Shown piece after piece: positions 527-50,732 of a DNA stretch of 64,000 nucleotides (position 1 is the stretch's first letter; every line of letters begins with the position of its first letter). The stretch comes from Anthoceros angustus (Eukaryota > Plantae > Anthocerotophyta), in the NCBI GenBank assembly GCA_010909165.1, contig MU008182.1, positions 62,001-126,000 of the forward strand, read 5' to 3'. Position numbers and translations under genes: made by a program. The notes below the pieces were generated by a model. That model was not told the origin of the DNA. It worked only from the letters and a program-made list of their open reading frames with translations, and ran no database searches.

Positions 527-803
527 TGATGAGAATCATCATTGCTCTAGGTAGCAAAACATAGCGGATAGTGAAAGCTTTGCACAAAAGAGTTGTATGC
601 ATTGATTATAATAGAAAGTACAAAGCCTTTATATAGGCTAGGTGGTTATAACCATAAGGTGGTTGTAACCATAAGTAGTTCTAACCTCTAAGTGGTTGTA
701 ACAACTAACTACTCATTAAACTACCTAAAGCCCTAAGAACTAAATTAATTAATAGCCTTAGGTGCCCTAGTGAAGAGTGCCCTAAATAGGTCATATTTCA
801 TCA
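527..803 (-). repeat. 3' LTR of Copia-A
   Basis: TGATGAGAATC...ATTTCATCA, direct repeat of 7792-8074, adjacent to the PPT. Confidence 0.93.
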
Positions 804-815
804 CTCCCACTCACT
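804..815 (-). promoter_or_regulatory. Polypurine tract AGTGAGTGGGAG
   Basis: Abuts the LTR; the same motif occurs at 49727-49738 and 57550-57561. Confidence 0.85.
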
Positions 816-1071
816 ATGAACTAGGTGTGAAGAATCGCTTCAAAATGAGACTAAAAGGCTAGTTAGCTCCCACTAACTTGAAAGCTATCCACTAACTAAG
901 AAAACAATTAAAACTGGCTTAAGTTACATTTAAGCAGAATTTAATGTAATCAAAATTAATTACCAAAAACTTAATTAGGAAATGGTAAATTCCTAAACAA
1001 GGTAAAAGGTAAAAGGTAAAAGAAAACCATTAAATGGGTTAAACCCATGGGGCATGTGATGCCGTCCGCCC

Positions 1072-2540
1072 ATGGGGGTCATCGTTAATGTACCCCCATA
1101 CGGTTTTATTCCTCCTCCCGCTCCCGCTCCTGCGCTCCCGCTCCTCCCGCTCATGAAGCACAAAGAACTTGCTATGGCGCCGGGGCACAAACTGGGCAAG
1201 GCGCGCGCCGTCGTGAGGGCCCAGCGGGCGCGCGCCCGCGCCGCCGCCATACTGGATCACTGCGGTGGTGCGGCGCCGATTCTGCAAGTAGATGGGTGCC
1301 AACCTGCGGTGGAAAAAGAAAGAAGAGTGCCGGGAGGGACGCGCCCGAGAGCAGACGCCCCCACTTGTGCAAACACGTGATCCTCTGCACCGTCTAAATG
1401 GATTCCAACCTTTGTGGAGAGCCCACCACGTTTTCGGTGGGATGAAGTGGTGAGCTCGTGTAGAGGTTGAAGTCACCGGGAGAGGTGGAATTTGTTCTGC
1501 AGGTCAAGATCGCCATTGATGTGTGAGTCGCCATATGCGAGTGTCTCACCCAAGCCGGAGATTAAAAGCGATCTTCCATGTCTTGTCTCAATTTCTCAAA
1601 AGTGCTGCTAATCCCAAGCCAAGCTCCAACTGCGGCATGTCGTCACCAGTTGTGCGGTGAGAGATCGTCGAGGAAGATTCAAAGCTCCTGTGGGAAGAAA
1701 TCGCCGAGATTGTTCTCTTATCGATACAAGTGCCTCGGAAGAATCTTCATTGAAGGGCTTCCACGCCTCGATGAAGGGAGGCTGAAATCTCAAGTAAGAT
1801 AGCGGCATGGTATAGCAGGCATTCCCCTTGTCGTGAAGGGAGGCACCTTTGCAGGATGCCCCCTTTGTCATGAGGAGAGGCACCTAGTTGTAAGCCCGTT
1901 TGTGGGCATCTTCAAATGACCATTTTCCAGTTCAAAATATTAATTGTGATGAATTTTCTGATACTATTTTCGCAGATTTATGTATGGAAAATTATGGGAA
2001 AAAGGAAAATGAAAATGAAAATGAAGAAAATGAGAAAATGAAAAGGTAGACATGCTTTTGTGACTCTAAAAGGTGTTCTAACTTATTTTCTCTTGCTAAA
2101 ATCTTGCCCATTTTAGGTTTCTTTTCCGCCCAAGAAAGACATAGAATAGGAAACATAGGATTCGAAACCGGCATATATCCCAAGGGTGATGATGTGAAGC
2201 TCATCTATATAATCACTAATATGAAAGGGGAATTCGGACGTACCTCCATGCTCCTATGTTTGCCGAAACTAAGATACATATGATACGGGTTATGTCTTGT
2301 TTGTGAAGAATTTCCGGGCATATGATCCATGTCTATCGTGAGTATTCTTGAGGTTAAGAAAATATGAAAAGTTTTAATTAGCAAAATATTATTTAATATT
2401 TTAATATTATTTTCTAGAGAGCACCTCAACTATGTATGAAGGAGGATGGACTACAGCCTATGTTAAGATTGAGGATGATTGTTCAAGACTTAGAATAGAA
2501 TATTGGATTACTAAGGTTATCTTAAGTAGACCAATTTAGC
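1072..2540 (+). pseudogene. Spliced antisense accessory gene of Copia-A (degenerate, unknown function)
   Basis: Putative GT..AG introns at 1890-1975, 2046-2116 and 2338-2417; short acidic exon; SYVC...CEEFPGHMIHVY resembles EYIC...CEEYEGHTKHLY of Copia-C; the 5' boundary is a guess. Confidence 0.55.
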
Positions 2541-2569
2541 TAGGATGAACTATGAACTCGGAGGCTTAG

Positions 2570-4030
2570 ACAGTGTCCAATATACCTAAACATTTCATAT
2601 GTTTCCTGCGTTCAATGCCTAGTGACTTTGTTAATAAATCACTGCATTATCTAAAGTTTGAACATAACTAATATCTATAGTTTTATCCTCTATTTTCTCT
2701 CGATATAATGATATTCGACAATATGTTTAGTTCTAGAGTGGAAGAGGTTCCTTGACAAGGCTATAGCTCACGACTATCACTCAACAACAAGGTGGGCTTT
2801 TCCCCTTGTGATGAAGTTCACTCAAGGTTAGCCTAGTCCATACTATGTCTTTATCTTTAGAGGTTAGTACTCTATACTCGACTCGGTCTTTGGACAAGGC
2901 TATGGTTGGTTGTTTCTTACTTGACCAGATATTGGTGCTCCCCAATAGCGATGACGCACGATACGGATCTGCGTGTCGGTCACCAGATAGTCGGCGTCGG
3001 TAATTTAATGTCAACGTCTTTATGCGGTGTATACTTGAATGTCAATCCTGTGCATGGTACCCTTGAGGTATCGAATATGCGCTTAGTTGACATCCGGTGT
3101 TCACGAGTTCTCGAATTGTGAGCAGGAGCGACGAAGATATATCCGTCGTGAAGTTGGATAAATATATAAGTGTGCCAACAGATGTCGATATGGGATGCGA
3201 CATTTCCAACTTATCTTGTCTTGTCTTTGGACTCATATCCATGGTAAGCCCCACTAGCAAAGGTGTAGGCGTTTCATCTTCAAGTCCAAACTTGGTTAAA
3301 CTTTCTTTAATGTACTTGGTTTGAACAATACTCGAGTCTTGTTTGCTCGATCTCTAATAATGTTGACACCAAGTGCATATGTCATTTCTCCTAAATCGGA
3401 CATTTCATAAAAGTCTTGAGCCGCTTTTGATCTCGGCTAGGAGTAAGAGTTTGTGGCCATGAATAAATCGTCGACGTAGAGCAATAAGTAAAAGGTATCA
3501 TTGCACGATATTAGGATATACATGCATGCATCGGCATCACTTTGCGGAAGCCTCTTTGATGAGTTTCACATGTATGTCCATATTCCAATTTTACCAGTTG
3601 CTTAAGGCCATACAAGCCTTTAATTAGTCGCATACCCAATCTTCCTTGCCTTTAACCTCATAACCTTGGGCTGTTTCATGTAGATTTCTTCTTGAAGACG
3701 GCCATAGAGATATGTTGTCTTCACATCCATCATATGGAGCTCAAGATCATGATGGGTATTAAGATTATTCTAAGGAAGCAAACTTTGCTCTGGGCGAATG
3801 TGGCCCATGGGAGGTAATCTAAACCCGGTATCTGGGTGAATCCCAGCCACAAGGCGTGCTTTGTATCTCTCAATGGAACCATCTCCTTTTCTCTTAATTT
3901 TGAATACCCATTTGCTGGTGACTATCTTCCTACCCTTAGGTGGCTTAACCAATTCCCATGTAGAGTTACTAATGAGAGAGTTATATTAATCTACTCTGAC
4001 TACCTTCCATAAGGCTTTTTAGGAAGAGAA
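2570..4030 (-). pseudogene. Copia RT + RNase H (frameshifted)
   Basis: [55 protein letters not shown]. Confidence 0.9.
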
Positions 4031-4052
4031 AGCTTGTTTTAAGGTAAGAGGT

Positions 4053-5830
4053 TCTTGGATCTATGGTTGCCTTGTATACGACTTGTGAGTAAAGTGATAC
4101 AGGGGAATAGGATCATCAAAACAGCTAGATATCCTAAAGGAGGTTCCTTCCATCCTGCGGGTCCGATTGCGGGGACGGGTTCTTAAGTTGTACCTTTGTG
4201 TAGGTTACGGTGCATCTTCCAGCGAACATCAATAGGATCATGGTGCTCCATGTCATTCACGGAGGGTCATCATGCTCTTCATAAAGAGTGTCTCTTGAAT
4301 GTTGTCGCCATCTGTGCCATGTGTTGGAATAGATGCTAACTCCTCCTCCTCCGGGTGAGGAGGAGGCGGCAGGAGAACGTGGATCGAGTATCACAAAGGA
4401 GTGTAGAGAGGGTATAATGTCAGACTATCTCTAAGGTGACTTGGCCCTTTGTGGAGATGGATTTTAAAGGTTCTGACGTGATGACACATGTGATCTAAGT
4501 TGTGAACCTTGGAGAGACAAGGTGTTCTATGATTGGCTCTAGACATTGTAACCTTAGGATGATAATCATAATGCGAGCATTGTGTGATTGTGTGCAATGT
4601 GAGGCTACATTGAGAAATGTGTGGCTTTGGACAATCTTGGATCTATGGTTGCCTTGTATACGACTTGTGAGTAAAGTGATACAGGGGAATAGGATCATCA
4701 AAACAGCTAGATATCCTAAAGGAGGTTCCTTCCATCCTGCGGGTCCGATTGCGGGGGGTTCTTAAGTTGTACCTTTGTGTAGGTTACGGTGCATCTTCCA
4801 GAGGAACATCAATAGGATCATGGTGCTCCATGTCATTCACGGAGGGTCATCATGCTCTTCATAAAGAGTGTCTGGCTCCTTGAGTTTGTGAATGTTGTCG
4901 CCATGCCATGTGTCCTTGAATAGATGCTAACTCCTCCTCCTCTTTTGGTGAGGATGTAGGAGAGGCGGAGGAGAGTGTATAAAAGGAGTATCTACAAGAA
5001 AGGAGGTGTAGAGATCCAAATGTCTGTGCTATCTCTAAAGGTGACTTGGCCCTTTGTGGAGATGGATTTTAAAGGTTCTGGTATTTGTGATGACACATGT
5101 TTGGATCTAAGTTGTGAACCTTGGAGAGACAAGGTGTTCTATGATTGGCTCTAGACATTGTAACCTTAGGATGATAATCATAATGCGAGCATTGTGTGAT
5201 TGTGTGCAATGTGAGGCTACATTGAGAAATGTGTGGCTTTGGACAATCTTGGATCTATGGTTGCCTTGTATACGACTTGTGAGTAAAGTGATACAGGGGA
5301 ATAGGATCATCAAAACAGCTAGATATCCTAAAGGAGGTTCCTTCCATCCTGCGGGTCCGATTGCGGACGGGTTCTTAAGTTGTACCTTTGTGTAGGTTAC
5401 GGTGCATCTTCCAGCAGAACATCAATAGGATCATGGTGCTCCATGTCATTCACGGAGGGTCATCATGCTCTTCATAACATGGCTCCTTACTTGAATGTTG
5501 TCGCCATCCTGGTGTTTGAATAGATGCTAACTCCTCCTCCCTCCAGGTGAGGTGTAAGGCGGCAGGAGAGTGGAAATTATCGGTATCATCACGAAAGGAG
5601 GTGTAGAGAGGGTCCTTCTGTGTACTATCTCTAAAGGTGACTTGGCCCTTTGTGGAGATGGATTTTAAAGGTTCACATGACGTGATGACCCATGTTTGCA
5701 TAAGTTGTGAACCTTGGAGAGATGTTTTCTGATTGCTCTAGACATTTGATAAGACTATTAGGATGACCTAATTACATGGAGCATTGTGTGATTTGTGCGA
5801 TGTGGGAGGCTACATTGAGATGTGTGGCTA
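4053..5830. repeat. Three tandem copies of a ~590-610 bp unit inside Copia-A pol
   Basis: TCTTGGATCTATGGTTGCCTTGTATACG... recurs near 4053, 4635 and 5247; identical ORFs at 4495-4701 and 5107-5313. Confidence 0.9.
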
Positions 5831-7000
5831 TGACAATCTATAGAGATCTTCTAAGATGCCAAAGATATTGTGTGTTCTATTCTTGAGGTAGGAAAGACTG
5901 TCTATGCAGCTGTGGTGGAGTGGCAAACTAGCGACACTATTTTGGAGGCGGAGACTTGAAGATGAAAGTCGCACATTGTGTACAAGGAACCTTGACATGG
6001 GAAGGTTGTGATCATCGCCAAAGAAACTCGATGTCTGTGTGTGAGAAGGAGTCTTTGTTAGAGAATGTGATGTTGCTCCGTCCGGTACCAATAAGCGGTG
6101 GCGGCTTAGGATGCAAGGCAAATAGTGAGCACGTGTTGTTGATGAAGAGTGTTTCTTGAAGCAACATGAGCGCAGGGCCTCGATCTAGGTTCCCATTCTT
6201 CTTCTTTCAGTCCTTTTCCATGTGATTAGGAATTCGCACCAATTACAAATAATTCCACTCTTTTTGTTACCACAGGTGTGGAAGAGTTGGATTCGCCATG
6301 ATATTTGTTTGGTGTGGAATGGCTCGATTGGAAGGAGAACTTTTGCGCGTCTCTTTCTTCGGTACATCACTGTTGTGGTGGACTTGGGCTCATGTGTTGG
6401 ACTCCTCTGAGGCTCAGATGAGTTCCGACCGATGAGTACGTGCATAGGCCGAGATTCTTTTGGGCTTGTCTAACCGTGTGAGTTGTGAAATGGTCAGGGG
6501 TGGGAGGGATATCAAGAGAACAAGGAATGCAACAAGTTCGGGACGGAGGTGTTGGTGGCGACTTCATATTGAGATCTAGCTTGTTGGAAAGTGTTGATAT
6601 GGTGTTAATTGATTCTTCTTGATTGAAGAAGTTGCAGCGGTCATCATACTCATCACATCTCTTGAAGAATATAAGCGAGCAAGGTGATCCCACATGTTTA
6701 GAAGTTTTGCTTGGCGCATTGTCTTACCATATTAAGTGCTAGTCCAGATCGGAGGTCTTGAGCTTTTTCATCCAGGCGTCCCGGTTTCTTTGCTCGGAGC
6801 GTGGTTTGGTGTGGACCCACTTACAACGTCCCATAGGTCTCGATTGCGGAAAAGTGCCCGCACATGCGTAAGCGTGTGCCCATTGAATCATCCTTCTCCT
6901 TAAAAGCTCACCATAGTTGTGATTCACCACGGAAGGTCGTACTTCATCTTTGGGTGGATCCTTCCTCTCCTCTTGTCACGTCGGAACCGCCATTGGTGGT
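5830..7000 (-). pseudogene. Copia gag (zinc knuckle) / protease remnant
   Basis: KKSGIICNWC zinc knuckle near 6200-6270 matches 52290-52350; GILEDLYRLS precedes the GAG-pre-integrase motif. Confidence 0.75.
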
Positions 7001-7223
7001 CACTATTGACTGCAGCGCCGCATTTCCTCATCATCATGCGAAATCTGGGCGCAAGGAGCAAACGAAGAAACCTTTTCATCTTGGCGTGTTTGTCGGGATG
7101 ACGGCGATGAGGAAAGTTTGTGATGAAGACATTTCGGCATGTTTGGATCGATGCTCAAGGAGGCGCTTATTGAGATCACGCACTTCTCTTGCTAACTCCT
7201 CTATGCTTGTTGCGTAGGGTGTG

Positions 7224-7589
7224 TTAGGCGTGGTTCTCTGGCGAGTCTTTATCGAGGAAGTTTCTTGCTTGTGTTGTTGTAAACGCATTGGAGAGGAGGA
7301 AGAGGACACCTTGTAGATTTGGGATATGATCAAGAGCGAGTTCAATTGCTTTCACTTGACTTAAACTAAAGATAGTAAGCAAGTTTCTTCTAGCAATTTC
7401 TATTTGCCTCCCTTGATCTTCTACTTTGATTAGAATAGAGCCAATGAAGTTAGCAATAAGTATGGAATCTCTTACTATCTGACTAGACTTCTTAGCAATT
7501 CTAATCTTTGCATTCCTATATTCTATCTCTTGTCTTGTAGCCTCAATCTTCTTCCAATAGCCTTGCTTGCGAGGATTGAAGGAATCCAT
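7224..7589 (-). CDS. Conserved ORF upstream of gag (ORF0 or N-terminal Gag extension)
   Basis: IANFIGSIL..DQG..KAIELALDHIPNL aligns with IANFIASIL..DQG..KALELALNHIPNL at 50880-51194. Confidence 0.65.
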   Translation of the reverse strand: MDSFNPRKQGYWKKIEATRQEIEYRNAKIRIAKKSSQIVRDSILIANFIGSILIKVEDQGRQIEIARRNLLTIFSLSQVKAIELALDHIPNLQGVLFLLSNAFTTTQARNFLDKDSPENHA

Positions 7590-7778
7590 CGCGTTGAAGC
7601 AAAGATTGGATGCACAGTGTGTGCATTATTGAAGATTAGGGAACCTGCAAACATGACAGCAATCTATGACATGCAATCTAAAGAATCTATACATCTTCTA
7701 AAAAAGAACTGAAGAAGAAGATGAAGAAGAAGAGTAGATCAGCATATCAAGTTGCGCAATGCAAGTAGAGAGCAGCAA

Positions 7779-7791
7779 TGCTCTGATACCA
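7779..7791 (-). promoter_or_regulatory. Primer-binding site (tRNA-iMet)
   Basis: Reverse complement is TGGTATCAGAGCA, immediately inside the 5' LTR. Confidence 0.92.
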
Positions 7792-8074
7792 TGATGAGAA
7801 TCATAGCTGCTCTAGGTAGCAAAACATAGCAAGCAGATAGTAGAAAGCTTTGCACAAAAAGAGTTGTATGCATTGATTATAATAGAAAGTACAAAGCCTT
7901 TATATAGGCTAGGTGGTTATAACCATAAGGTGGTTGTAACCATAAGTAGTTCTAACCTCTAAGTAGTTGTAACAACTAACTACTCATTAAACTACCTAAA
8001 GCCCTAAGAACTAAATTAATTAATAGCCTTAGGTGCCCTAGTGAAGAGTGCCCTAAATAGGTCATATTTCATCA
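7792..8074 (-). repeat. 5' LTR of Copia-A
   Basis: Direct repeat of 527-803. Confidence 0.93.
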
Positions 8075-12107: not shown

Positions 12108-12289
12108 TGGTGTGAACTTGTGTGTTGAAGCTATGCGCGAGGTTGGTTGGAGACGTCTGATCAGCATCAAACTCGTTCGATGCACTGCCTTCTCGTCACA
12201 AGAAGGCCAGGAAGATCCCTGGATGGTCGAGAGCGGAGTGGCCAAGCTCCACGTCTGGAAGTGGTGGAAGGTAACGGGCGCAGACGATT

Positions 12290-14519
12290 GTTAAAATTTT
12301 CAGGGATTTCCTCAGAGACTTCATGGAAGTCTTCCTTGACGACTTCTGCGTGTTTGGAGCAGTGAGGAATCATCTGGGCCACCTTCGCAAGTGCTTGGAG
12401 CGGTGTCGACAGACCCAATTGTGCCTACATCCAGAGAAGTGCTATTTCGGAATGCCAGAGGGCATCCTGTTGGGGCACCGCATCTCCGCCAGAGGGATAG
12501 AGGTGGACCCTGACAAGATCAAAATGATAGCCGCTCTTAAGCCACCCACAACGCTAAAGGAGCTTAGAGGATTCCTTGGAATGGTTGGCTATTACCGTAG
12601 GTTTGTGAAGAATTTCTCAAAGAGGGCAGCTCCACTACTTACGAGTTTACTTTGCAAGGATCAGGAGTGGGCATGGACGCGGGAGCGGGAGGACGCCTTC
12701 CAAGATCTTTGAACCACTTTAATCACAGCACCAACCCTGAGGGGTCCATACTGGAAAAAGAAATTTCATGTGTTCGTGGATGTATCAAAGATTTGCCATC
12801 GGATCGCCTCACCAATGGGAAGAGAAGAACAATGATTATCCATCTATTATGCGCAAAGCTCACCGATGCGGAACGGAAGTACACGACTACTAAAAGGGAG
12901 GCACTGGGAATGGTCTACTCGGTTCGCAAATTCCGTCACTATTTGCTCTCTTATGAGTTTGTCTTCCATATCGACCACTTCGCACTGAAACATCTGGTGA
13001 ACAAGATCGACCTATCTGGCCGCATAGCTCGTTGGATTCGATTGCTGCAGGAGTTCACATTTACAGTTGAGACATGGGAGGGCAACAAGCATGTTAATGC
13101 CGATTTTATATCGAGATTGAAGACGGAAGCGGTGACGCAGGCTCAGTACGATGATTTTCCCGATGAAGCTTTGTTCGCAGCAAAGATAGAGGGGGAAGCG
13201 GCCGGGCCGAATCGAAAGGTGGCAAATAATGGTGGTGCGGCAGGAAATGAGAAGGGGAGACCCGGATACACCAGGCCTACTTACTCAGAGATATTTGAGT
13301 TCCTGGGGTTGGGCAGCATCCCCCCGGACCTTTCGAGGCAACAACAGCATGCCTTCGTGCATTATTCACGTCCATTTATGTCCGCCCAGGGCACGGCTTA
13401 TACGTAGGACGGACGGAAGAGAAAGGTTGTAGAGGATGCACGATTCTCGCGTGTTATGGTTGCCAGCCGGAGGCGGGAGGACATTTCGCAGCACACATCA
13501 CGTGCAGGAAAATTCTCGAAACAGGATATTGGTGGCCAAGCATGCATCAAGATGCCAAAGAGTTTGTGAAACGATGCAACGCCTGTCAAAGGGTTGGCAA
13601 ACCCTCTGCCACAACCCAATGGCCATTGATACCGATCCTGGCACTGGCTCCATTTGAAAAATGGGGTGTAGACTTTGTTGGTCCCATCCAACCCAAAACG
13701 AGGAGCCGCCAAAATCAGTACATCCTGGTTGCCACCGACTATTGCACGCGTATGGTGGAGGCGCAAGCCCTCCAAGTAGACACAGCTCATGTTGTCACCA
13801 GGTTCCTCTATGAGCAGATTATTGCCCGTTATGGATGCCCCTTAGAGCTTGTCAGCGACAGGGGGTCGCATTTCGCAAATGAGGTCATTTCTCATATGAC
13901 GGTCTACTTCAATGTTCGCCACAGGAAAACAACTCCTTATAATCTGAAGGCGAATGGGTTGACAGAGAAGGAAAATGGGCTCTTATGCAAGATCCTGAAC
14001 AAACTCACGGTGGAATATGCATACGATTGGGATCTCAAGCTTCACTCGGCACTTTGGGCATATAGGACTGCGGAAAAAATAACGACTCAGCAAACACCGT
14101 ACTACCTCACCTACGGCCATTTTTCGGTAATGCCTGTTGAATTTGAAATTCCTACCCTGCGCATCCAGGAATTTAACCGCATGACAGTTGAAGAAAGTCA
14201 ACTGGAACGTCTTGTCAGCTTCGCCAAACACACCGAGGATAGGGAACAAGCGCTGGTTGTCATGCAGGAGGTCCAGGCAAAATGAAAGGCATGGCATGAT
14301 AACCGGTTGCGGAAACAAGAGTGGGTGGCACCTAGTGACTTGGCCTTATTGTATGACAATAGATATATGCACTTTCCAGGCAACCTTCACCTTCGATGGA
14401 TGGGCCCATATAAAGTCCTAGAGGTTTTCGCAAATGGCTCCATACAGCTCCAACAGTTAGACGGGCTGCCCCTACCAACCAGGATCAACGGTTGGAGAGT
14501 CAAGAAATACTACACATGA
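12290..14519 (+). pseudogene. Ty3/Gypsy pol, 5'-truncated (RT C-terminal part, RNase H, integrase, GPY/F)
   Basis: EVFLDDF, LRGFLGMVGYYRRF, ERKYTTTKREALGMVYSVRKFRHYL, CNACQR, WGVDFVGP, SDRGSHF, RWMGPYKV...INGWRVKKYY. Confidence 0.93.
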
Positions 14520-16800: not shown

Positions 16801-18689
16801 TCACTTGCCACTGAGGAGGGTCCGAGCTACCTCCCTCGTCAGCGCCTCGCGCCTTCCTGCTGATTGCAGTGCTCCTCCTCGCCTTGGCTAAATGCGCCAC
16901 AGCTCACTCTAGTGCTTCACGCCCCGCTCCTCGACGCTCCGCCCCGTTACTTCAACTTGAATCGCCTCCGACCTTTCCGAGTTTTCTTAGGGTTATATCC
17001 CCCTGAAGTTCCCCGACCACCAGCCGGCTTCCGCTACCACTTCTCCCTTCCGCGACCGCCCTTCCAGTTCTTCGACCTCCTTCGGAGCCTAGCTCCCACA
17101 CTCCCCAGTCAATGACCACACAGTTCCCTCTGGCCCGGTTGGTATTCAGCGTTATCGGAGAGGCGGTGAAGAGAAACTCCACACTGCGGCCTCGGAGCCT
17201 TGACCTCGCTGACCAAGCATGGGGGTGTCTCTCACTAAGAGCAAGTGGCGGGATAAGGGCAAACACAAGGTGGCTGCGGTATAGAAGATGACGGCTTTGG
17301 AGTCTCATCGCTTCACCGACTACTCGATTAGAAATGCGTTGTGACCTCGTTGACGACTAAAGCTGGTGTGTGTGGCGTGTCTTCACCCCGGTGTCAAGGT
17401 GAGGATTATGGAGATCCCTCACGTATACGGTTCATAAGGTGGACGGAGGAAGAGGATGTGCCCGCAACATGGCTGGGGCATGATGTACGATCTGTGACGG
17501 TGCTTATGTAACACGGCCTTGCTCGCACCAATCGCCCAGGCTGTTATGCCCAAGTCCTTTGTGCCATTGTCACGGGAACTTCCATTCTCTCGTGGTGGAT
17601 CATTTGATGGAGGCTTTGGAGCCACCACAATCATCACAGGGGTTGGTAGGAACCATTCGAGTTCCGCCGTGCATGGTCAACTTTCGAGTTAGTACGAAGA
17701 TTGCAGGCTCCTTTGTTCCTTAGCGGATCCGGATGTTGGCGATCAATATGCTGCCACGCTTAGCAGTTGGTTGCTCGGACGGGGCCGTCCTCGGCGTACC
17801 ACCCGAGGTCTCTATACGGCCGGGCGGCTACAATTGGTCAAGGGCTTGGCAGGCGGTGGCTGGCAAGGAGGTGCGATGTCACAATTGGCTCGAGCTTCGC
17901 ATGGTCATCCCATGATCCAGCCTACTCGGCGGATCACAGTGCCTATCAACCATGCCGTGGTTGACAATCGAGGTGTATTCTCAATGGAGTAGCACCACGG
18001 GTGGTGCTCTTGGACACCGGAGCACAACCTTATCATCGGTCAAGCCTTGGCGGCCGCATTCTGAGGTGGGGATGCTCTCAAGAGTCGTGGAGTAGTCATT
18101 ACCGCCACAGGGCCATCGAGCAGTTCAAGGCGAGGCAGTGTCCGATTTCTATCGTCTTGAAACCTGGTACTAACGATGTTGTTCAGCTGGACTTGCCCTG
18201 TTTGGTATCAGCTGCCACCAACTATGACATCCTGCTTGGCGAGAATTTATTCCGCACGAGTTGGGATTGACTGGGGAGGCGAGCATATTATCGTCCGGAT
18301 TGGCGGCGGGGTGGTCGGCGTTTAGCCTACATTCCTTTGGACTTACATCATCAGCTAGCTGCCGGTGACGTTGCATTGGTTGACCGCCAAGCATGTCCGG
18401 CGTTACGTTATCCTTTGTTACCTCAGGATGATCATCACATCTCTTGGATTTTTACAGAGGATGATGCCAGTCCTGTTGTTTCTAATGATGTGGATACTAT
18501 TGCCCCTGATGCGAGTGCCCCGTTGTCGAGTCAGGCAGTATGGTATGCTGCCCGGCGGCATGTGGAGTATGCTTTACAGCAATTTCATGCGGCCGGGATT
18601 GAGGCCGGGACAAAGCCGTTTCTTGAGTCTGCTTCAACGTTGCTTCCACCTTTGAATCAACATACCATTATTTGGCCCGTGTGTACAGC

Positions 18690-19600
18690 GGGTTATGTGG
18701 TGTTGGAATTATTCGGGGGTTTGTGCACTGGCTTGGAGGCTCTATTACGTGCTGGCGTTTTGGTGCGTCAATATTATTACTGTGACAATTGTCCGGTCGC
18801 TCAACAGATTGCTGGGCATCGCTTGCAGCAGTTACATTCTCGCCATGCTAGTTTGTTTCCGATCTCTGCATTTGTGACTACGTTCACTGCTTTACCTCAA
18901 GATGTCGGTGACATTCACCAATCCCACATCCAGGCTTTGCCTCCGGTTGATCTGGTGATCGCTGGATGGGAGTGTCAGGGGTTTTCCCGTGCTGGCCAAG
19001 GTGCGGGTTTGCAGGATCCACGGAGCGGATCGTTTTTGTCGTTGGCTCGTATTTTGCATTGGCTTCAGCAGGTGCACCCTCATATGGTGTATGTTCGAGA
19101 ATACTCCGGCACATTTAGATCCTCGGCCGCACTTGTTTTGATGCTACGTTGATCCAACATGTGGTGGGATCTCCGTTTGTCATGGATCTTTCGCAGTCGG
19201 TAGCTTTGCCCACCGTTACGCGCTATTGGACCAATTGGGCTCCATGCACAATTTTGCAATTGGCACTTGACATCTGATTCGTGATGATCAGCTCCGGTTG
19301 CAAGATGTTTTGGAACCATATCATAGTCCGGTGAAGGCGTGGAGAAGTCTCCGTGGTTTCCAACTAATCGGCACCGGCATGCCGCGCCGGACTCTACCAC
19401 TGGTCGGTTTTCCGGTTCTTATGCGTATCGTGGGGGTCAATGGGCTGTTGTTGGAATGTTCGTGCTCAACGATGGGAGGAGCCCTCTTGGAAGAACGAGA
19501 ACGTATCATGGGGTTTGATACTCATACTCAGTTGGCGTCACTTACAGTCGGATTGCTGCTCTCGGGCGTGCTATGGATTTACGCTTACACGGCTTGTTAC
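18690..19600 (+). CDS. DNA (cytosine-5)-methyltransferase domain embedded in Gypsy pol
   Basis: Motif I VLELFGG..G; DV.DI; motif IV DLVIAGWECQGFS; DPRS..F; EN across a frameshift (~19097); AHR.R.YWTN; ERERIMGF; LGRAMD. Confidence 0.9.
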
Positions 19601-22479
19601 CATTTGTTTAGTGTTTCAAATCTTGTCGCGTGCTCCGTTTGTGGGTTTATTTCCTCAGTGCTGGAGCATGTCATCCGATGTCGCTCACTTGCCCTTTCCG
19701 GTTAGATCTCTCTTATACTGGATCTTTGGGGAGTCAATAGCTTTTCGTGTCCATCATTCGGTTTCGGCTTGTATGGTGAGCAATTCGGATTCGGAGACCA
19801 CGTTTATCATCACCGGCCGGTAGCCTCGATATGTTTCCACAATATGGGGTCTCGGTTGATGAAGATCGGAGGCAGTTAAGTGACCCTGGCTAAATCCGAG
19901 ATTGTTTTGCCTTCTCTATGAAGGAGCCGGGTACTTGTAATGTGATGAAGTTCCGTGTTCAGCTGACCACTAATGAGCCGGTTCTGACGCCCGGTACCGT
20001 CTTAGCCCTGCCGAGTGGGAGATCGTGGACGCACGTTGTAAGGAGTTACATGAAGTCGGGTTGATTCGCCATCCACGTCGATTTTTTTGCGCTCTTCCAC
20101 CCAAGAAGGATAGTCGATTGTGGGTGGCATGTGTGGTGATTATCGGCCTCACGACGCGATCCGCAGGATCGTTATCCTATGCCTACCGGAGGAGTTATTT
20201 GATCGATTGGACAATCTTCGCTTTTTTGTTGGACTGCGTGATTTAACCAGTGCCCATGGCGGATGAGGACATCAAGAAGATGGCGTTCCACGGCTCGCAA
20301 CAACTTTGGGAGTGGCTGTTCATGCCTTTTGGGTTCCGTAATGCTCCTGTTACGTTTCAGAGAATCATGGACAAGGTGTTGGCGGGTGCACCACATCTCT
20401 TGTGTTACATCGATGATGTGTTGGTTCACAGTCGAGACTTTCACACACATTTGATTCACTTGGAGGACCTATTTTGTCGGCTTCGCAAGGCAGCATTGAA
20501 GTGTCATCCCGCCAAGTGTGAGCTGGGTGTTGATACGATTGATTCTAGGTCATAGGATTGTGCCTAACGGCATTATGCCTCACGCTGCTAAGGTTCAGGC
20601 TATCTTGGAGGTACCTGCGCCTACTAGCGTGTCCATGTTAAGGGCATATCTGAGCCTCTGCCATTATTATCGCATTTACATTCAGGATTTTAGTCGTATT
20701 GCCAAGCCTCTCAATGAGTTGTTACGCAAGAATGTCGCTTGGGATTGGGCAGAAGCATGTGAGCAAGCGTTTCTTATGTTGAAGGACAGGTTCAACCTGT
20801 CATGGCTAGACCTGATTTTGACAAACCATTCGTTGTGCATACAGTTGAGTCGGTTTGGGTTTGGGTCTTGCTCGCCCAATTGATGATGCAGTCATGAAGC
20901 GTGTAATTGCGTATGCTTCGCAGATTGCAATAGAGCTGAGTAATTACCCTAGTTATGAAGGGAGTGTTTGGCTGTGGGTGTATGTCATTTTACTTACTTG
21001 TATGGTGATTTGGTGACGGACCATCAGCCTTTGAAGTGGTTGATGACTAACACCCAATTGAGTGGCAAGTTGGCTCGGTGGGCAATGACCTTACAAGATT
21101 ATGATTTTGAGGTTGTTCATCGTCCGGAGCTTGTCACCGAGAATCTTGATTTGTTATCACGGCATCCTGTGGAATCTAGCGAAGACCATACAGAGGCACG
21201 ATTTTGACGAGAATGGGATGGTGTGATGGCTTTATGCCGTGCCGGAGACTTGAGCATTGTGCTGTTTATCGGCTTGTTGGGCATGGCGAGACATTTGACA
21301 GTTCGGAACCATGCATTATTTACCAAGCTGGTTCATACCCGTAGGGTGTACAAGCTCTGAAAACACGCATTCGACGGGCGGCGGATACAATTGGCGAGAT
21401 GGTTATCTCGCGGTGGCGGCAGGCGTTGTGACACGCCGCCACGGGATCGGAAGTCGTTGGTCTTTGGCTCATGCCGACATGGGGCATTTTGGCGTCAAGC
21501 GAGCGTATAGTTTGTTGGCTCCTCATTTCCATTGGAGTGGCATGTATGGTCAAGTTCGTGATCCGATAGCCCAATGCGGCGGCGGCGGTAAAGGCTTCTT
21601 TTAATATCAAGCCATCTCAGCCGTTACCTATCGGTCTTTTCTTTTGGTCTTGCGATCTTATTGGTGAGTTGCCTAAGGCGGACGGGGTAATGTTTATGTG
21701 ATGGTGATGGTAGAACACTTTTCTAAGTGGGCTGAGATTGTTGCTTTGCCCGATAAGAGCTCGAAAGCCCAAGCCTTTTACTGCATGTGCTTAGTCGGTT
21801 TGGCGGTATGCGAGAATGTCTCACGATCGAGTGGAGTTCGTGGAGAATTTCGATTGTTGGATCATGCTTTCATTGATCATCGACGAACTAGTCGAGATCA
21901 TCCCCAAGCAGATGGGTTGGCTGAGCGTTTGGTTCAGACCATTAAGCAAGGTTTACGTAAACTGTTGTTGACAATGCCTCAAGCTGATTGGGACCTGGCG
22001 TTGCCGTATGTGGCGATGGGGTATCGTATGAGTAAGCACGCTGCTTTGGCCCATTTTTCTCCCTATTTCTTGCTCTTTGGGCGGGATCCTGTTCCTCCTG
22101 TCTCCATTGCCAAGGAAATGCATCGTAGTGGCCTGATGATGATCACACATGGGCCCGGCGGTTGGTGGCGGGCATTTTGGTGAGGCCATGCCTATGGCTG
22201 TAACCTAATCGATTGCTCGACGCATCGAGACACGTTGCGTTATGCTTACACTCGCGGTGGCCACCCTAAATTGAAGAAGTTTCACACGGAGACTATGTTT
22301 ATCTGACAGCCAATGTCTGGAACCTTCTACTCGAGAGACATGTATTGCGAGTTAAAGAGGTCTTTGACAGTGTGTTGGTGTTGCAAGTCGATGGACGGCG
22401 CTCAAGGAGCACATGAAGAATTGTGCTCCTTGCCATCTTCCTCTGGACCCCACGATCGTTCTGATTGGTTAGGTTCGAT

Positions 22480-22612
22480 TATCCATGCCAAGTCGCGGCG
22501 CATCGGCGATCCGGAGCTTATGTTGTTGTGTGGCGGATGCAATGGTGGATTCCATCTATTTTGTTTGTCTCCACCACTCAGAGGTGCAGGTGTTTGGTAT
22601 TGCCTGCCTCTC
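22480..22612 (+). CDS. PHD finger at the integrase C-terminus
   Basis: MLLCGGCNGGFHLFCLSPPL...WYC fits the C4HC3 pattern; the first Cys pair is frameshifted. Confidence 0.85.
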
Positions 22613-22725
22613 GGAGTAAGGGTACTCGGGAGCGGTTTGGCGCTGTTATGTGAGTCTTCTTGGTTGTTTGGTTCTCCTTGGCGGTGATGTTGCGACTTTG
22701 GGCTTGACGTCCTTCGCCCTGGGAA

Positions 22726-42149: not shown

Positions 42150-44650
42150 GTGCATGCGGGTGACTCGGTTGGCCTTCCTCGACCATGGTTTGGGACGTTG
42201 ACTTTGAGGATTTGGTCAAGGCTCGCTTAAGCACGAACAACGCCGCCAATCCGGCCGGATGTCCGTGCCCATAACGTCGCCGGGAAGGAGGGATGGGGGC
42301 CCATCGGCGCTTGCGCCAGCCGAGAGGAGAGTCGAAGCCGGAAAATGGTCCACAAGGGACTTGGCGCGAGGAGGCGAGCGGCCCAACGGATGGAAGCACG
42401 GGCGCGGATGGTGGAAGCGGCAAGTGAGGTGGGCGCCGTGGAGAAAGCCGATTCCACAAGTGGAGGGTGGATGCCCATGGCGTGGAGCGGGAAGCGGCGA
42501 GAGGTGGAGGTGCCGAGGAGAACCTTCATGAGTGGAGTCTGCAAGAGGCGGGCGATGCTCGGCGGCCGGAAGTGGAGTGGGTGTCTCCACAGTGGGGAGC
42601 TAACGCTACAATGCTTCAGGAGAGATTCCAAAGTCGGAGGAGGGATCGCCAGGCGGCGACATCCGGAGGAGGACATTGGCCTTAGTCCGGAGCTTGAGGG
42701 CATGTCCAACTTGAGGAGCATGGTGGTGGTGCACAAGAGGGTGACCACCGTGGCTGGGAGAGATGGCATACGTTTGTGGACCTTACGCCGGTGGCGACGG
42801 ACAACCCCAACAACGTGGCGGAGGGAGCCTTTGGAGGGGAGGAGACTCCTGCGGTGGGAGTGGGCGTGGTGGGCGCGGTTGCGGAGGAGGGCCAAGGAGC
42901 GCATGCCTATGATGGTGAGGAGGGCGGTGAGGAGGAGGACACCAGCGGCGAGGATGGGGAGGCGGGAGCGAGGAGGAAGATGTGGAGATGGCGGATCGAG
43001 GTCGAGGAAGACATGCCGACTACATTGCCAGCACATGAAATTGGAGAATTGATTGGCGGTAAGCCATTAGACGATGTCATAGCCGTGTTGTGCTACATGG
43101 GCGTGGTGGCGTGTACATGGTGAGCCGGTTATGCGATGGAGGGTGGATAGAGAATGAGGAGGAGGATGAAGAGTCGTCCGATGAGGAAGGACGAGTGAGG
43201 AAGGCCTTCCACCGCGTGTGTTGGAGCTAGTGTGTGCAAAATGGAGTGATGGTGCCATGGTCGAGCCACGACGAAAGTTTGCGAAAGACCGGTGAGGAAG
43301 GTAGAGTATGAGTTTGCAAGTATAGAGCGCGAGGATATTGTGGCCAGTTTGCGGTGCATCGCGGACAAGGAACCACAATGTGGGCAAGAAGGTGCGCAAG
43401 CGCAATTCGTGGAGGGAGAAGGGAAGGATGCAAAATGGTTGCATCCGCCTAATGTGAGCACGAAGGCATGGAGAAAGGTATGCGGCAAGCCGTGGTGACG
43501 TTGCAAGCATGGGGTGTGTGGCCAACACCACGCGCCGCAACGCCGGCAAGAATTGCACGAGCATGGGACGAATCCCTTTGGTCCAAGAGGAGCAAAGGAG
43601 TTCGAAACGGTATGTCCAACGGGAGGAGCGCAACTGGATGAGTTGAAGTGGGCAGCAAGGCATGGATTGGACAGATCGAGATCGAGTGGTAAAATAGTCG
43701 TTGTGGTTAATGGAATGCTTGGTTGTGATATGTAGGTTTCGCTATGTAGGGGCGTGGATGAGTGATGCGTGTGCATGATGCAGGAAGAAGGGAAGGAAAA
43801 CGGTGGAAGGTGAAGGCCAGTCGTGAAGGAAGGCACAGAACCCGGTGGAGAGAAGGAAGATGGAGGAAGGTGCCAAGCAGGGGCGTCACCGTCAAGTGAT
43901 GCCGGAGGCAACGTGGATGGTGGGGATCCGGAGGTGTGATGGCGTGCCAAAAGGCGTATCACGATCCGTGTCAAAAGCGTGAGTAGGGTGGCAACCCGAT
44001 CGAGAGATTGAATGCTATTCGTTTGCCGTCGTAATTGTGGAAGTGGTGATTTGGCAGCCTATGGGGCCGGAGTGAAGGGCTAGCCATTGAGGCTAGTGGG
44101 TCGAATGCCGCCCACGTAAGGTGGACCACACCAGACGAAACGAGGAGGTGCCGAGCGAAGAGGGTCAAGCAAAAGACAACGGGTGTTGAAGCCGCAAGAG
44201 GAGTCGAGTCGGACGGTGGCGAAGGGTGTAGGCGCAAGTGACATAGGAATGGTTGGTACGTCTATGGGTAGGGGCGTTTGTGGAGGGGAATGTAAATGGT
44301 CGAGATGTTTTCCTGGACGATGGAGTCGCCCGGCATGGGTGGACGGTGATGGTCAATTAGCAACAAACAAGAGGGAATTGGTCCCACCTTTGTAGCCTGG
44401 CATTGACATGTCTAATTGTGAAAGTGGTTATAGAGGTCTGGATAGGTGTAGGAAGATGTGGAGGAACCACGAAACCATTGGTGTTGGTCCAAGAGTCACC
44501 AAGTGACGTCGCGTCGCTTGTGAGGCACATGTTGGTGGTGCACGCGACGACTATGCCCATATCACGTGGAGTTCGTATTGCATCGGTGGAAACAAAGTGC
44601 AAGGGATAGAGGACGATTGAAGTGTCCAAAAATTTGATTTAAATTGTCAA
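42150..44650 (+). pseudogene. Divergently oriented accessory gene in the CACTA element (unknown; second copy at 30340-31420 plus 45488-48000)
   Basis: VRKVEYEF.SI.REDIVA...AKW.H.PNVSTKAWR is shared by 43292-43498 and 46504-46908. Confidence 0.55.
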
Positions 44651-45463
44651 TAAAATCAAACACTTAGATATGTAAGGTATGAGAGTGACGTAAGGGTTAG
44701 CACATATATATTATTATATAAACAAGTCTTGATGCCTATATATACGTGCGTACATACGTATACAAAGAGGCCTGTAAATACACTAATATAATAGAAGTAT
44801 AACAGATGGATGTGTACATATAAACGTACACATACTTATGTCTTGAAGCCTACAAACATATATATGTATATTGAGTATATGCAAAGGAGGTAAAAAGGGA
44901 AGGGAAGGACAGCCCCCCGGGGCAGAGAGAGGTCATTGTAACAAGCAAGTTGAAAGAGGAATAGTGGAAGAGTATAAAATGGCTGTGATAGGGGAGGTCC
45001 TTCTCACAGTCATGAAGGAGGAGGAGAAGTGAAAGAGTATAAAAAGGGTGTGATAAGGGGGGCAATAAATAGGAGGGTGAGGTGAGAGGAGAGAGACCAA
45101 GTATTGTGTTAAGATGGGGTGAGAAGCTGGATAAGAAAAGGACACCTTGAACACCAAGCCACCATAAAGTGTTGCAATATTGAAGTGGTACATGAAGTGA
45201 GAGACCAAGCATTGTGTTAGGATGGTGGGAGAAGGAAGAGAAAGAATGGACCAACTTAACACCAAGCCATCAAACCATCTTTGGAAGTTGGAAGTGGAAA
45301 TTATTAACAATGCTTGTGAGAGAGGGGTGTACCGGAAGGGGAGGGGAAGAGATAGTGTCGTTCGTGTTAAGATGGCACCAAACGGGAGAACTAACAAACT
45401 TAATACCAACCCTCCAAAACATGTTGCAATGTGGAAGTGTAACAAAAATTGCAACATCCACGT

Positions 45464-45487
45464 ATAGGGTGCCCTTTTCTAGTAGGG
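45464..45487 (-). repeat. Right TIR of the inner CACTA element
   Basis: Exact reverse complement of 31421-31444. Confidence 0.95.
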
Positions 45488-45807
45488 CGTGTGGTGATGT
45501 CATTGGTTTGTGGACCTTACTTGGGTGGCGATGGACAACCCCAACAACGTGGGAGGAGGTGCCTGTGGAGAGGAGACTGCGCCTAAGGTGGACAGTGCTG
45601 TGGAGGAGGCGGTTGCGGGGGCCAAGGCACATATGATGGTCGGGAGGCGGTGAGGAGAGGACACCAATGGCGCGATGATGGGAAGCGCGAGGCGAATGTG
45701 GAGATGGCGGATGATGAGGTGGAGCGGACATACCGACTACATTGCCACTACACGATTGAAGAATTGGGAGCGGTTGGCGGTGGCCACTAGACAACGTCAT
45801 TCGACGG

Positions 45808-46416
45808 TAAGCACTTGAATTCACATAAGCACTTCCTCAACAACCAAGCAAACAAATCTAATACATCTAGATATATATGTGCAACCAATAACAATGTGAG
45901 GAGTAGCTACATGTCGCAGCACAACACACTCTTCCACGAGAACAAGACGCAAAATTTCTCACATCGCTCTCGAGTCATAGCTTTGGCCTCCTCACAACGC
46001 TCTCGCTTGCATATCTAGAGGACAAGCTATGATCTGAGCTTGTCCTCAATGGAAGGGTCTATATACTAGCCTTAGCATCGGCATATTCCTAAGATATCCT
46101 ATTGGCATCAGCATATGCCGGAAATATCCTAAGAATACACTATAATATGCAAGGAATATGCCCAAGCATATTACTTGAGCTTATCCACTTAGCTATTGTA
46201 TTCTAAGAATTTACTATTATATGCAAGAAATATGCCAAAGCATATTACTTGAGCTTATCCACTTAGCTATTGCTAACCATATTTAATTAACACTAATAAA
46301 TGATTAATTAGCATAAGCACCTTAGATTAATTAAAACTAATTACTTACTTAAAGATAAGTAATTACATTAATTAATGCTAATCAAACACTAAACCCAAGT
46401 GCAGAGATTAGTATCA
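45808..46416 (-). mobile_element. Probable solo LTR
   Basis: AT-rich insert absent from the homologous copy at ~43070; ends ...TATCA; flanks GACGG/TACGG; internal ~60-75 bp duplication. Confidence 0.6.
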
Positions 46417-48130
46417 TACGGCATGACATTGCCGTGTTGTGCAGGCTGCATGGGCGTGGTGGAGTGTACATGGCTGTGAGCCCAGTTATGCGATGGAGGT
46501 TGGGTGGAGAATGAGGAGGAGGAGGAAGAGTCGTCCGATGAGGAAGGACGGTTGAGGAAGGCCTTCCACCAACGTGTGTTGGAGCTAGTGTGCGCAAAAA
46601 TTTCGAGCCACGACGACAGTTTGAGGGACAGACTGGTGAGGAAGGTAGAGTATGAGTTCCCAAGTATAGATCGCGAGGATATTGTGGCCATGTTTGCAAG
46701 TGCATCACGGACAAGGAACCACAATGTGGGAAAGAAGGTGTGGCAAGCTGCAATTATCCGGAGGGAGAAGGGGAAGGATGCAAAATGGCCACATTCGCCA
46801 AATGTGAGCACGAAGGCATGGAGATGGGCTGTAGAGCAAGCTGTGGTGACATTGCAGAAGCATGGTGGTGTGTGGCCAACACCACAGCAAGCAGCCGCAA
46901 CTAAGTGATGTGTGTGCATGACTGCAGGGAAGAAGGGGAAGGGAAAGCTGGTGGAAGGTGAAGGCCATGTCAGGAAGGAAGGCAAAGATCCCAGTGGAGA
47001 GAAGGAAGATGGAGGAAAGGTGGCAAACAGGGGGGCATCACCGTCAAGTGATGCCGAAGGCAACGTAGATGGTGGGGAACCTGGATGTGTGATGGCATTG
47101 CCACCGACAAGGCATATCACACGACCTGTGTCTAAAAGCGTGAGTAGGGTGGCAAAGCGGGTACTGAGGGATTGAATGCTATTCGTTTGCCGTCTGTAAC
47201 TGTGAAAGTGGTGTTTTGGCAGCCTATGGGGCCAGGAGTGAAGGGGCTAGCCATGGAGGCCAGTGGGTCAAATGCGAGCCCACAAAAGGTGGACCACACC
47301 AGGAGGAAACGAGGAGGTGCTGAGCAAAGAGGGTCAAGCAAAAGACAACGGGTGTTGAAGCTGCAAGAGGAGTCTGAGTCGGATGGTGGCGAAGGGGTGT
47401 AGGCGCGGCTGACATAGGAATGGTTCATGGCTAATGGCTGGCGGAGACCCTTGATCTTTGCAGCGATGGTGGGATGTAATGATGCCAGGATGTTCAGACC
47501 ATGCATGCAGAGGTTGGAAACCATGGTGAACGAGGGAGAGAATGCGGGAGCGCATGCCGAATGCAATCTGGAAAACAACCGTGGCAGGTGGGCCGTCTGT
47601 GGAGGGGGAATGTGAATGTTCAAAGCCATTTTCTTGCAGACGCTAGAGTCGCCAATGCATGGGTGGACCGGTGATGGTTAATCAGCAACAAACAGAGGGA
47701 ATTGGTCTTCCCACCTTTGTAGCCTAGCATTTACAGGGGTCCTCTGCCGTCAAAGTGGTAAATGAGGTCGCTGGATAGGTCTAGGAAGTTGTGGAGGAAC
47801 CTTGAAAACAATGGTGTTTGTCTGAAGAGTCACCAAGTGACGTCGCGTCCCTTCAGTTCAGAGGCACATGTTCGTATTGCACGCAAGACGCATATGTTCA
47901 TATCACTTGGAAGACGCACATGTTCGTAGTTAAAGCCAATGGCATTAGTGGCAACAAAGCTGAAAGGGATAGAGGACGCTTGAAGTGTCCAAAAATTCCA
48001 ATTAATTTGTCAATAAAATCAAACATATATATATGCAAGGTATGAGAGTGACGTAAGCGTTAGCACATACATATTAGTACATAAACAAGTCTTGAAGCCT
48101 ATATACATATATACATATACAAAGGAGGTA

Positions 48131-48400
48131 AATATAAGTACACTTATATAATATAAGTACACTTATATAATATAAGTACACTTATATAATATAAGTACAC
48201 TAATATAATATAAGTACACTAATATAATATAAGTATACGAAGGATGTGTACATACATATTAGTACATAAACAAGTCTTGAAGCCTATATACATATACAAA
48301 GGAGGTAAAATATAGTACACTTATATAATATAAGTACACTTATATAATATAAGTACACTTATATAAGTACACTAATATAAGTACACTAATATATAAGTAT
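48131..48400. repeat. 19-bp minisatellite AATATAAGTACACTTATAT in two blocks within a ~185-bp duplication
   Basis: Direct inspection. Confidence 0.85.
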
Positions 48401-49426
48401 ACGAAGGATGTGTACATATATATGTACACATACTTACACATACTTATGTCTTGAAGCCTATATACATATATACGTATACAAAGGATATGCAAAGGAGGTA
48501 AAATAGGAAGAGAAGGATACCCTCCGGGGGCGAGAGAGGTCCTTGTTACAATCATGTTGCAAGAGGAAGAGGGAAAGAGCATGAAATGGTTGTGATAGGG
48601 GAGCTCCTTCTCACAGTCATGATGGGAGGAGAAGAAGTGAAAGAGTATAAAAAGGGTGTGATAAGGGGAGCAATAACTAGCAGGGTGAGGTGAGAGGAGA
48701 GAGACCAAGCATTGTGTTAAGATGGTGTGAGAAGGTGGATAAGAAATCGACACCCTTAACACCAAGCCACCAAAGAGTGTTGCAATTTTGAAGTGGTACA
48801 TGAAGTGAGAGACCAAGCATTGCGTTAGGATGGTGGGAGAAGGAAGAGAAAAAATTGACCAACTGAACACCAAGCCATCAAAATGTGTTGCAAGTTGGAA
48901 GTGTTACATAAAATTACAACAACGACTGTAACAAGGGCAGGTGGGAAATTATCAACAATGCTTGTGAGAGAGGGGGTGTACCCATAAGGGTGAGGTGGGA
49001 AGAGGGAGTGCCAGGTTCGCGTTAAGATGGCTGCACCAAACGGGGACAGAATTGACAAACTTAATACCAAGCCTCCAAAACATGTTGCAATATGGAAGTG
49101 TAACAAAAAATTGCAACATCGACTGTAACATAGGCTGCCCTTTTCTAATAGGGGTTGGTTCCCTCCATGAGAGTGATTCCATCGTCTTCGCTAGCCGGTC
49201 ACTCATACACTTGCTTTATGCTCCTCAGTGTCCAGCATCTCGGATTCGTCCTAGCGTTCTGTTTGGGCAAAGCCGCCAATTCCTCCTCTATCTGATGTAG
49301 ATTCACATAACACTCCTCGATTAATTACAAATTGGAGTATGTACAATGTTTCATGTACATCCATTCTAGCTGGATATTCTTCTCCGTTGCCCAAGGCCCA
49401 AAATGTGCGAGATCCTTAGAAGACAA

Positions 49427-49726
49427 TGATGAGAATCAATAGCTCTTAGGCAGAAGAGATACAATACAATGAATTGATTAAAGAGTAAAGTACAAACCTT
49501 TATATAGGCTAAGTGGTTAGGTGGTTAGGTGGTTAGGTGGTTAGGTGGTTAGGTGGTTAGGTGGTTATAACAATATGTTGTTATAACCACCAAGTTGTTA
49601 TAACTAATATAACAACTAACTACCTAGAGCAACTAAATAGATAACTACCTAATGCCCTAGGCATAAATTAATGTTTAAGTAATGTGGCCCTAATGAATAG
49701 TGCCCTAAACTAGATATATTTCATCA
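49427..49726 (-). repeat. 3' LTR of Copia-C containing (GTGGTTAG)n
   Basis: TGATGAGAATC...TTTCATCA followed by CTCCCACTCACT. Confidence 0.88.
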
Positions 49727-50461: not shown

Positions 50462-50720
50462 TGATGAAATAGGTCTAGATTAGGCACTATTCATTAGGGC
50501 CTCATAACTTAAACATTATTATCTACCTAGGGTTATTTAGGTAGTTAGTAGTTATATTAGTTATATTGGTTACAACAACTTACGGTTGCAACTACTTATG
50601 GTTGCAACCATTTATGGTTGTAACCACCCAACTACCAGCCTATTTAAAGGCTTGTACTTTACTCATTAATTACTTACATTGTTTCTTCTTCTTCTAATCT
50701 AAGAGCTCTGATTCTCATCA
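50462..50720 (+). repeat. 5' LTR of Copia-B
   Basis: TGATGAAATAGG...TTCTCATCA. Confidence 0.93.
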
Positions 50721-50732
50721 TGGTATCGAGCA
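50721..50732 (+). promoter_or_regulatory. PBS (tRNA-iMet, one base missing)
   Basis: TGGTATC-GAGCA. Confidence 0.85.

Follow-up and report, generated by a model that had tools for sequence, protein, structure and literature searches.

A homologous antisense gene, apparently spliced, in three Copia retrotransposons of an Anthoceros angustus contig

The Copia-A retrotransposon carries, between its RNase H domain and its 3′ LTR, a plus-strand region that an initial annotation read as a third, distant copy of an antisense gene with the same exon architecture as its two counterparts. The question is whether this error-prone stretch is a gene at all, how much of its architecture is shared, and whether it has followed the same history as the reverse transcriptase (RT) of its element. 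The window, which is the whole 64,000-nt stretch of DNA analysed, contains three related Copia elements (A, B and C), and they provide the material for the comparison.

The Copia-A element and its antisense region

Copia-A is a Ty1/Copia LTR retrotransposon spanning 527-8074 with gag-pol on the minus strand. It has paired LTRs (the 3′ LTR at 527-803 is 96% identical to the 5′ LTR at 7792-8074), a polypurine tract adjoining the 3′ LTR (804-811; AGTGGGAG on the minus strand, the same in B and C) and a primer binding site at 7780-7791, and its integrase precedes its RT. The primer binding site is of the plant initiator-tRNA type. The RT is of the Copia type; in particular, that of Copia-C matches RVT_2 (E = 2.7e-51), and Copia-A is identical to C at 212 of 288 positions. 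The RT and RNase H of Copia-A (2575-3900, minus strand) lie tail to tail with the antisense gene and have identities of 73-76% among A, B and C. The three RTs form one branch (SH-aLRT 100) with at most 48% identity to database RTs, and because the closest database RT is just 48% identical, the host is poorly sampled. Across 390 aligned codons, the frame of the RT/RNase H is broken at 28 places in Copia-A (26 short breaks and 2 long) and by 19 short and 3 long breaks in Copia-B. The sequence is error-rich and RT is also broken, so the frame breaks in the extra gene of Copia-A are not peculiar to that gene.

Copia-B is on the plus strand (LTRs at 50462-50720 and 57562-57821). Copia-C extends from its 3′ LTR (49427-49726) to an RT at about 60648; it is split by Copia-B (50462-57821), which is nested in the 5′ region of the Copia-C antisense gene in the opposite orientation, and its RT is interrupted near 60646 by the insertion of another element.

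The antisense gene of Copia-A lies on the plus strand and has three GT..AG introns. Introns had been annotated at 1890-1975, 2046-2116 and 2338-2417, and GT..AG ends are found at exactly those coordinates, with AT contents of 0.65-0.82. Upstream of the gene is a GC- and CpG-rich block (1040-1380, plus strand; GC 0.64, CpG observed/expected 1.00) that may be a promoter or 5′ region, and similar CpG-rich blocks precede the B and C genes. One or more predicted upstream exons (1500-1889) end at the donor at 1890. Predicted intron 1 (86 nt, GTAAGC..GCAG) has a branch-like CTGAT 18 nt before its end, and it is followed by a small Glu/Asn-rich exon (1976-2045; 70 nt in the window and 72 nt in another copy), intron 2 (71 nt, GTAGAC..TTAG), the conserved exon 3 (2117-2337), whose frame is broken at 8 places in the window copy, and intron 3 (80 nt, GTGAGT..CTAG). 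The last exon (2418-2536) is covered with gaps by contigs from X1 and X2, two public runs of the same coded organism from two studies, each with 5% of the sampled words; indels make its true stop uncertain.

Elsewhere in the window, a Gypsy-type element (17900-22650, plus strand) has a C5 DNA methyltransferase (PF00145) between its protease and RT and, by motif order, a PHD finger (PF00628) after its integrase. Motif IV of C5 DNA methyltransferases usually reads PC; the motif IV region here reads WECQG. The element resembles KnitGypsy-Dnmt3 of Klebsormidium nitens, as far as the accessible part of PMC5890265 describes it. A further Gypsy-type pol with RVT_1, RNase H and integrase is located at 12275-14285 (plus strand), duplicated segments about 3.4-3.6 kb apart occupy 44598-49110 with a 19-bp tandem array near 48095-48366, and an ORF-like stretch that begins with a basic, Lys-rich segment and matches no Pfam family occurs twice in 61900-64000 (plus strand), the copies lying about 1.44 kb from each other.

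Homology, reading frame and splice junctions

The counterparts of the Copia-A gene are the antisense genes of Copia-B (55698-56650, minus strand), which has three introns and no 72-nt exon, and of Copia-C (58012-59277, plus strand), which has donors at 58172, 58654, 58799 and 59150 and an intact exon at 58883-59149. Searches with Copia-C by tblastn and blastn did not detect the Copia-A gene. A frameshift-tolerant alignment of a B+C profile to the raw window gave an outcome that depends on the frameshift penalty: at one penalty, the score was reached by 0/300 dinucleotide shuffles, 0/192 window tiles and 0/100 query shuffles; at a stricter one, by 12/300, 6/192 and 0/100; and with the full-length profile, by 8/300, 3/192 and 2/100. 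The peptide similarity, originally described as weak, is marginal when the window is taken alone (0-12 of 300 shuffles across the three settings) and becomes clear once the public runs place the frame breaks.

In particular, the frameshifts of the window copy are absent from the X1 and X2 contigs. Over exon 3, the X1 contig has 13 extra letters at 8 places, and the two X2 contigs have the same total (10 and 3 gaps); three of the places observed in the runs (2264, 2297 and 2313) match breaks that had already been predicted by homology (2264, 2301 and 2314). With X inserted at the breaks, exon 3 is 234 nt long and has no stops in the homologous frame, compared to 7 and 6 in the others, and when these breaks were instead placed at random, the frame opened in 17 of 1000 trials and the exon 3 score was reached in none of 1000. 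The frame-repaired exon scores 75 against the B+C profile, 14 standard deviations above its shuffles (maximum 44.5, with 0/1000 reaching the score), and 21 of 51 residues are identical to the B/C genes. The idea that the Copia-A region is decayed or chance sequence, matched only through flexible frameshifting, could draw on the raw scores that were marginal at stricter penalties (12/300 shuffles) and on the upstream and last exons that have no match; however, independent runs fixed the positions of the breaks, the frame then opens, the repaired score stands far outside the shuffled distribution, and two introns appear spliced. That idea is largely refuted and hardly credible, and the region is almost certainly a real, homologous coding gene, the third and distant copy that had been proposed, with its homology to B and C residing in the core exon.

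How far the exon architecture is shared differs along the gene. A profile alignment of the three copies is significant for the core exon, places intron 3 at the same codon and is non-significant for the other exons. The donor after HVY was said to fall in the same codon phase, and it does so, in phase 1 and at the homologous codon in B (55869) and C (59150); a C-x14-C-x5-H-x2-H arrangement, at 2261-2330 in Copia-A, and the phase-1 intron that follows it are common to all three genes. Comparisons with B and C stay at chance level for the upstream exons (141-213 of 300 shuffles reach the score) and for the last exon (171-221 of 1000), and the position of intron 2 is not alignable between copies. 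By eye, a 'CE..PSRR..PC'-like stretch at about 1530-1590 and a Cys-containing repeat at about 1815-1885 resemble the B/C upstream exon; both were set aside as non-significant. The short acidic exon of about 70 nt is borne out in its length (70 nt, and 72 nt in an X2 variant) and its Glu-richness, but not as a sequence match between A and C: compared to the C exon (58727-58798), length and phase are shared and no sequence similarity is found beyond Glu-richness. Likewise, the proposal of one common architecture applies to A and C, but not to B, which lacks the 72-nt exon and has one intron fewer. Overall, a shared architecture is found for the core exon and intron 3 and, judging from exon length and phase, is likely for the 72-nt exon. 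The last intron of Copia-C (59150-59176) is 27 nt long, compared to 71 nt in B, and is in frame with a stop; it is probably too short to splice, which points to either a deletion in the Copia-C copy or a misassembly.

The X2 run also contains candidate splice products. One contig (depth 2, with 24 letters on its short side) omits 2338-2417 exactly, at its GT..AG ends, and a second (depth 14.2) has a loose end that passes directly from the last letters of exon 2 to the first of exon 3, in phase 1, a reading made by eye from 10 visible letters of exon 2. The X2 variant has two extra letters at the end of exon 2, giving 72 nt and phases 1-1 as in the C exon. The acceptor AG of intron 1 is retained in the X1 and X2 variants, and no spliced form of this intron occurs among the X1/X2 contigs shown. 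Splice support therefore consists of one contig each for introns 2 and 3, from the single run X2, whose status as RNA is a guess. X2 also has unspliced contigs, as expected of genomic RNA or DNA; X1 spans the introns with no splice joint and so resembles DNA; and a third run, X3, has barely any cover of Copia-A. Since the contigs are strandless, the antisense direction of splicing is read from the GT..AG polarity. The spliced junctions of X2 imply a plus-strand RNA, to the extent that this guess about the run and this reading of strandless contigs hold.

The antisense gene is present in 3/3 of the Copia elements analysed in the window and is conserved as coding sequence. Between B and C, dN/dS is 0.10 over the last two exons (108 codons) and 0.25 over the upstream exon (37 codons). 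Between the window copy and X1, among the 40 of 44 entries listed, 11 of 17 substitutions in exon 3 fall at third positions, and 8 are synonymous and 4 non-synonymous, with 5 left unscored that lie at breaks or in multiply changed codons (p = 0.008 and 0.003 for third-position and synonymous bias). By these substitution counts, present-day selection on the Copia-A gene is purifying. The gene had been called old. This agrees with its being homologous in three element families that have diverged until the third positions of their RTs are close to saturated (pS 0.76-0.77).

The gene was further said to be kept despite the loss of integrase. The integrase of Copia-A retains its start, after which about 650 nt are skipped up to the linker that precedes RT; the LEIVH integrase start is found upstream of RT in A and B, and the core motifs are present in B and absent from A. 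The window copy of Copia-A thus lacks the intact integrase core of an autonomous Copia element, as had been noted, but its retention of the gene is no proof of selection. Given how many errors the sequence contains, an LTR identity of 96% indicates a young copy. A copy that has recently suffered a deletion retains its remaining parts in any case, and the loss of integrase therefore does not speak for selection on the gene. The deletion junction is contained in each of three tandem units of about 600 bp (4053-5839, minus strand). Long identical stretches alternate with indel-rich ones across this repeat, and one unit is skipped by an X1 contig; the repeat may be a real duplication or an assembly artefact.

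Gene history and RT history

The RT/RNase H sequences of the three elements are nearly equidistant (identities over 288 shared codons: A-B 218, A-C 212, B-C 210), and their informative sites are near even (32, 26 and 24). The RT tree, built by a quick search in which 40 of the 120 database RTs listed were included, joins A with B (SH-aLRT 97); its outgroup is distant and drew a long-branch warning. The gene, in contrast, joins B with C: over 60 shared columns of exon 3, the identities are 46 for B-C, 24 for A-C and 19 for A-B. The comparison of gene tree and RT tree, which had been proposed as a check, therefore ends in groupings that disagree. The accompanying claim that the gene evolves faster than RT fails for the B-C pair, where the gene is as conserved as RT (82/108 codons compared to 210/288; Fisher p = 0.61); the long branch is specific to A, where identity of the A-C gene core (21/51) is far lower than that of the A-C RT (212/288; p = 1e-5).

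The conflict between gene and RT groupings makes a cassette swap or a burst of change in the A lineage likely. For the Copia-A gene, the analysis leans slightly toward a swap over a speed-up. Template switching is a known property of reverse transcription, and the Copia-A version might have been acquired through it from a more distant family. By blastn, nothing in B or C matches the Copia-A spacer (904-2581), and both of its flanks match at about 70-73%; sliding DNA identity among the elements, inflated by gapped alignment, is uninformative. However, the B-C upstream spacer is also unalignable by blastn, so that fast change of spacers alone is common here. The rather less probable course is vertical inheritance together with RT, with an adaptive burst in family A during an arms race with a host partner and a gene that is slow in, or was exchanged between, B and C. 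In its favor, the LTR and RT of Copia-A are equally close to B and C, selection on the gene in A is now purifying, and third-position differences between B and C are lower in the gene (40/108) than in RT (143/272; p = 0.006), as an exchange would produce. It must nevertheless account for differences in the whole spacer, the introns and the exon lengths of A, beyond the amino acids, and for a local speed-up of several-fold, because the B-C gene changes at the pace of RT. With three copies only, a swap and an A-lineage burst are indistinguishable.

Proposed function and known systems

Overall, the reading that the analysis favors, by a modest margin over even chances, is that the spliced antisense gene encodes a likely zinc- and nucleic-acid-binding regulator of its own element and that it has likely been swapped as a cassette between families. 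Introns that face away from the genomic RNA of an element are not spliced from it and hence survive reverse transcription, and a gene with such introns needs an antisense transcript of its own. A promoter in the 3′ LTR or in the adjoining CpG-rich block would drive this transcript. At about 250-330 residues, the protein would begin with an acidic stretch of low complexity, and zinc would be held by two Cys and two His within a beta-rich core. The four residues, whose identity and spacing are alike in A, B and C, probably form a zinc site, as suggested by the retention of 4/4 scorable Cys/His of the aligned core across copies; the motif was chosen after inspection of the alignment. To our knowledge, its spacing matches no known zinc finger. 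The protein may act in trans on the DNA or RNA of its own element, favoring its expression through activation or relief of silencing. Its role as a nucleic-acid regulator is more tentative, falling somewhat below an even chance, because no homologue, Pfam family or usable model stands behind the function.

In particular, four exon pieces from Copia-C and two from Copia-A gave no Pfam match below E = 0.18, and Transposase_28, the plant mobile domain and ATHILA ORF-1 were absent from the pieces scanned. Exon 3 of Copia-C had no homologues among proteins of 155-2000 aa or 48-154 aa, in metagenome contigs (150 pattern matches) or in viral contigs, and 0 matches among PDB sequences. The single match among 1.84 billion representatives (E = 2.4e-5), a 1232-aa protein of LRR and cadherin-like repeats, was rejected, as it is 21-27% identical, summed over repeats, and does not have the Cys/His motif. 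A protein atlas gave a best score of 0.86 to an unnamed protein, a lead only, and two single-sequence structure models (pLDDT 41.7 and 32.5) were too poor for a fold search. Among 46 metagenome Copia loci (RT 28-48% identical), many of which hold little DNA beyond RT, a search of both strands gave a best score of 47, located upstream of RT, with no motif and no tblastn match.

Two other roles can be weighed with these results. The protein could have the particle or a host protein as its target, through Gag assembly, nuclear import, self-control of copy number or integration targeting, instead of nucleic acid. The low-confidence models contain a beta-rich core and a C-terminal acidic helix, the sole sequence match lies in the beta-sandwich repeats of a surface protein of bacterial type, and accessory-factor roles are proposed in the accessible text of PMC7264820; however, that same match is 21-27% identical, is a sum over repeats and does not extend to the Cys/His motif, and the role is unlikely, if not strongly so. 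Alternatively, the gene may have been captured from the host and ride along with no service to the element. Its intron-exon structure is host-like, but purifying selection, the same position in three diverged families and the lack of a cellular homologue in three protein searches make this very improbable. A regulator of the element itself stays the favored role.

Grande and RIRE2 are Gypsy elements. According to the accessible parts of PMC7264820, PMC11963269 and PMC4093653, antisense extra ORFs between pol and the 3′ LTR (aORF-3R) are found in maize Grande (gene23), rice RIRE2, Silene Retand and bean pvRetro13, and the bean elements (including pvRetro13) and Retand are Ty3/Gypsy. The Copia-A gene likewise lies between pol and the 3′ LTR, antisense to gag-pol. 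As those parts describe the class, it shares with the Copia-A gene its position, antisense orientation, presence in multiple families, pol-like conservation and undefined function, and its ORFs are long, many with Transposase_28, SMC-like or plant mobile domains. The gene here differs in its Copia host element, in having 3-4 introns and in lacking those domains in the exons scanned.

Zhao et al. reportedly described brtn of Boty-like elements in 2011. The citing papers PMC8365987 and PMC7264820, in their accessible parts, present it as an extra antisense gene of Boty-like Gypsy elements of Botrytis cinerea; it belongs to a fungal Gypsy, and the likeness is by description alone. In the plant Copia element SIRE, an env-like extra ORF is sense in 74% of elements and antisense in 1% (PMC6317226, accessible part), whereas the gene here is antisense and spliced. 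The accessible part of this plant reference survey reports antisense extra ORFs as common in Gypsy (Retand 86%, Ogre 60%) and lists them as absent from 13/16 Copia groups, with two rows whose columns are ambiguous, using a cut-off of at least 250 codons. Antisense extra genes are thus already known in Gypsy and, as far as these accessible parts extend, seldom recorded in surveys of plant Copia. At that cut-off, multi-exon genes of this kind would be missed, the conserved exon here being 89 codons long. The literature searched describes no antisense gene of plant Copia that is spliced; subscription papers and file 1 of PMC6317226 may list some.

The VANC anti-silencing proteins of Arabidopsis VANDAL transposons (PMC6719617, accessible part) offer a functional analogy only, that of an element-encoded accessory protein that varies between families. 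VANC proteins come from DNA transposons, with demethylation and motif arrays, and the likeness here is drawn with no sequence comparison. A bolder and improbable reading is that an entire Copia lineage, so far unsampled, has a multi-exon antisense cassette that can be swapped. The cassette would encode a novel fold that binds zinc, and its product would serve each family as its own anti-silencing or activating factor, the counterpart of VANC among retrotransposons. If true, cassette genes would be widespread in plant-type Copia and invisible to surveys that demand single 250-codon ORFs.

A 2020 review, in its accessible part (PMC7264820), called for a search for spliced antisense transcripts and described the function of such genes as undefined. 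Beside these systems, the present case is a Copia example that has splice evidence, selection, a four-residue motif that can be mutated, and an indication that its gene travels separately from RT.
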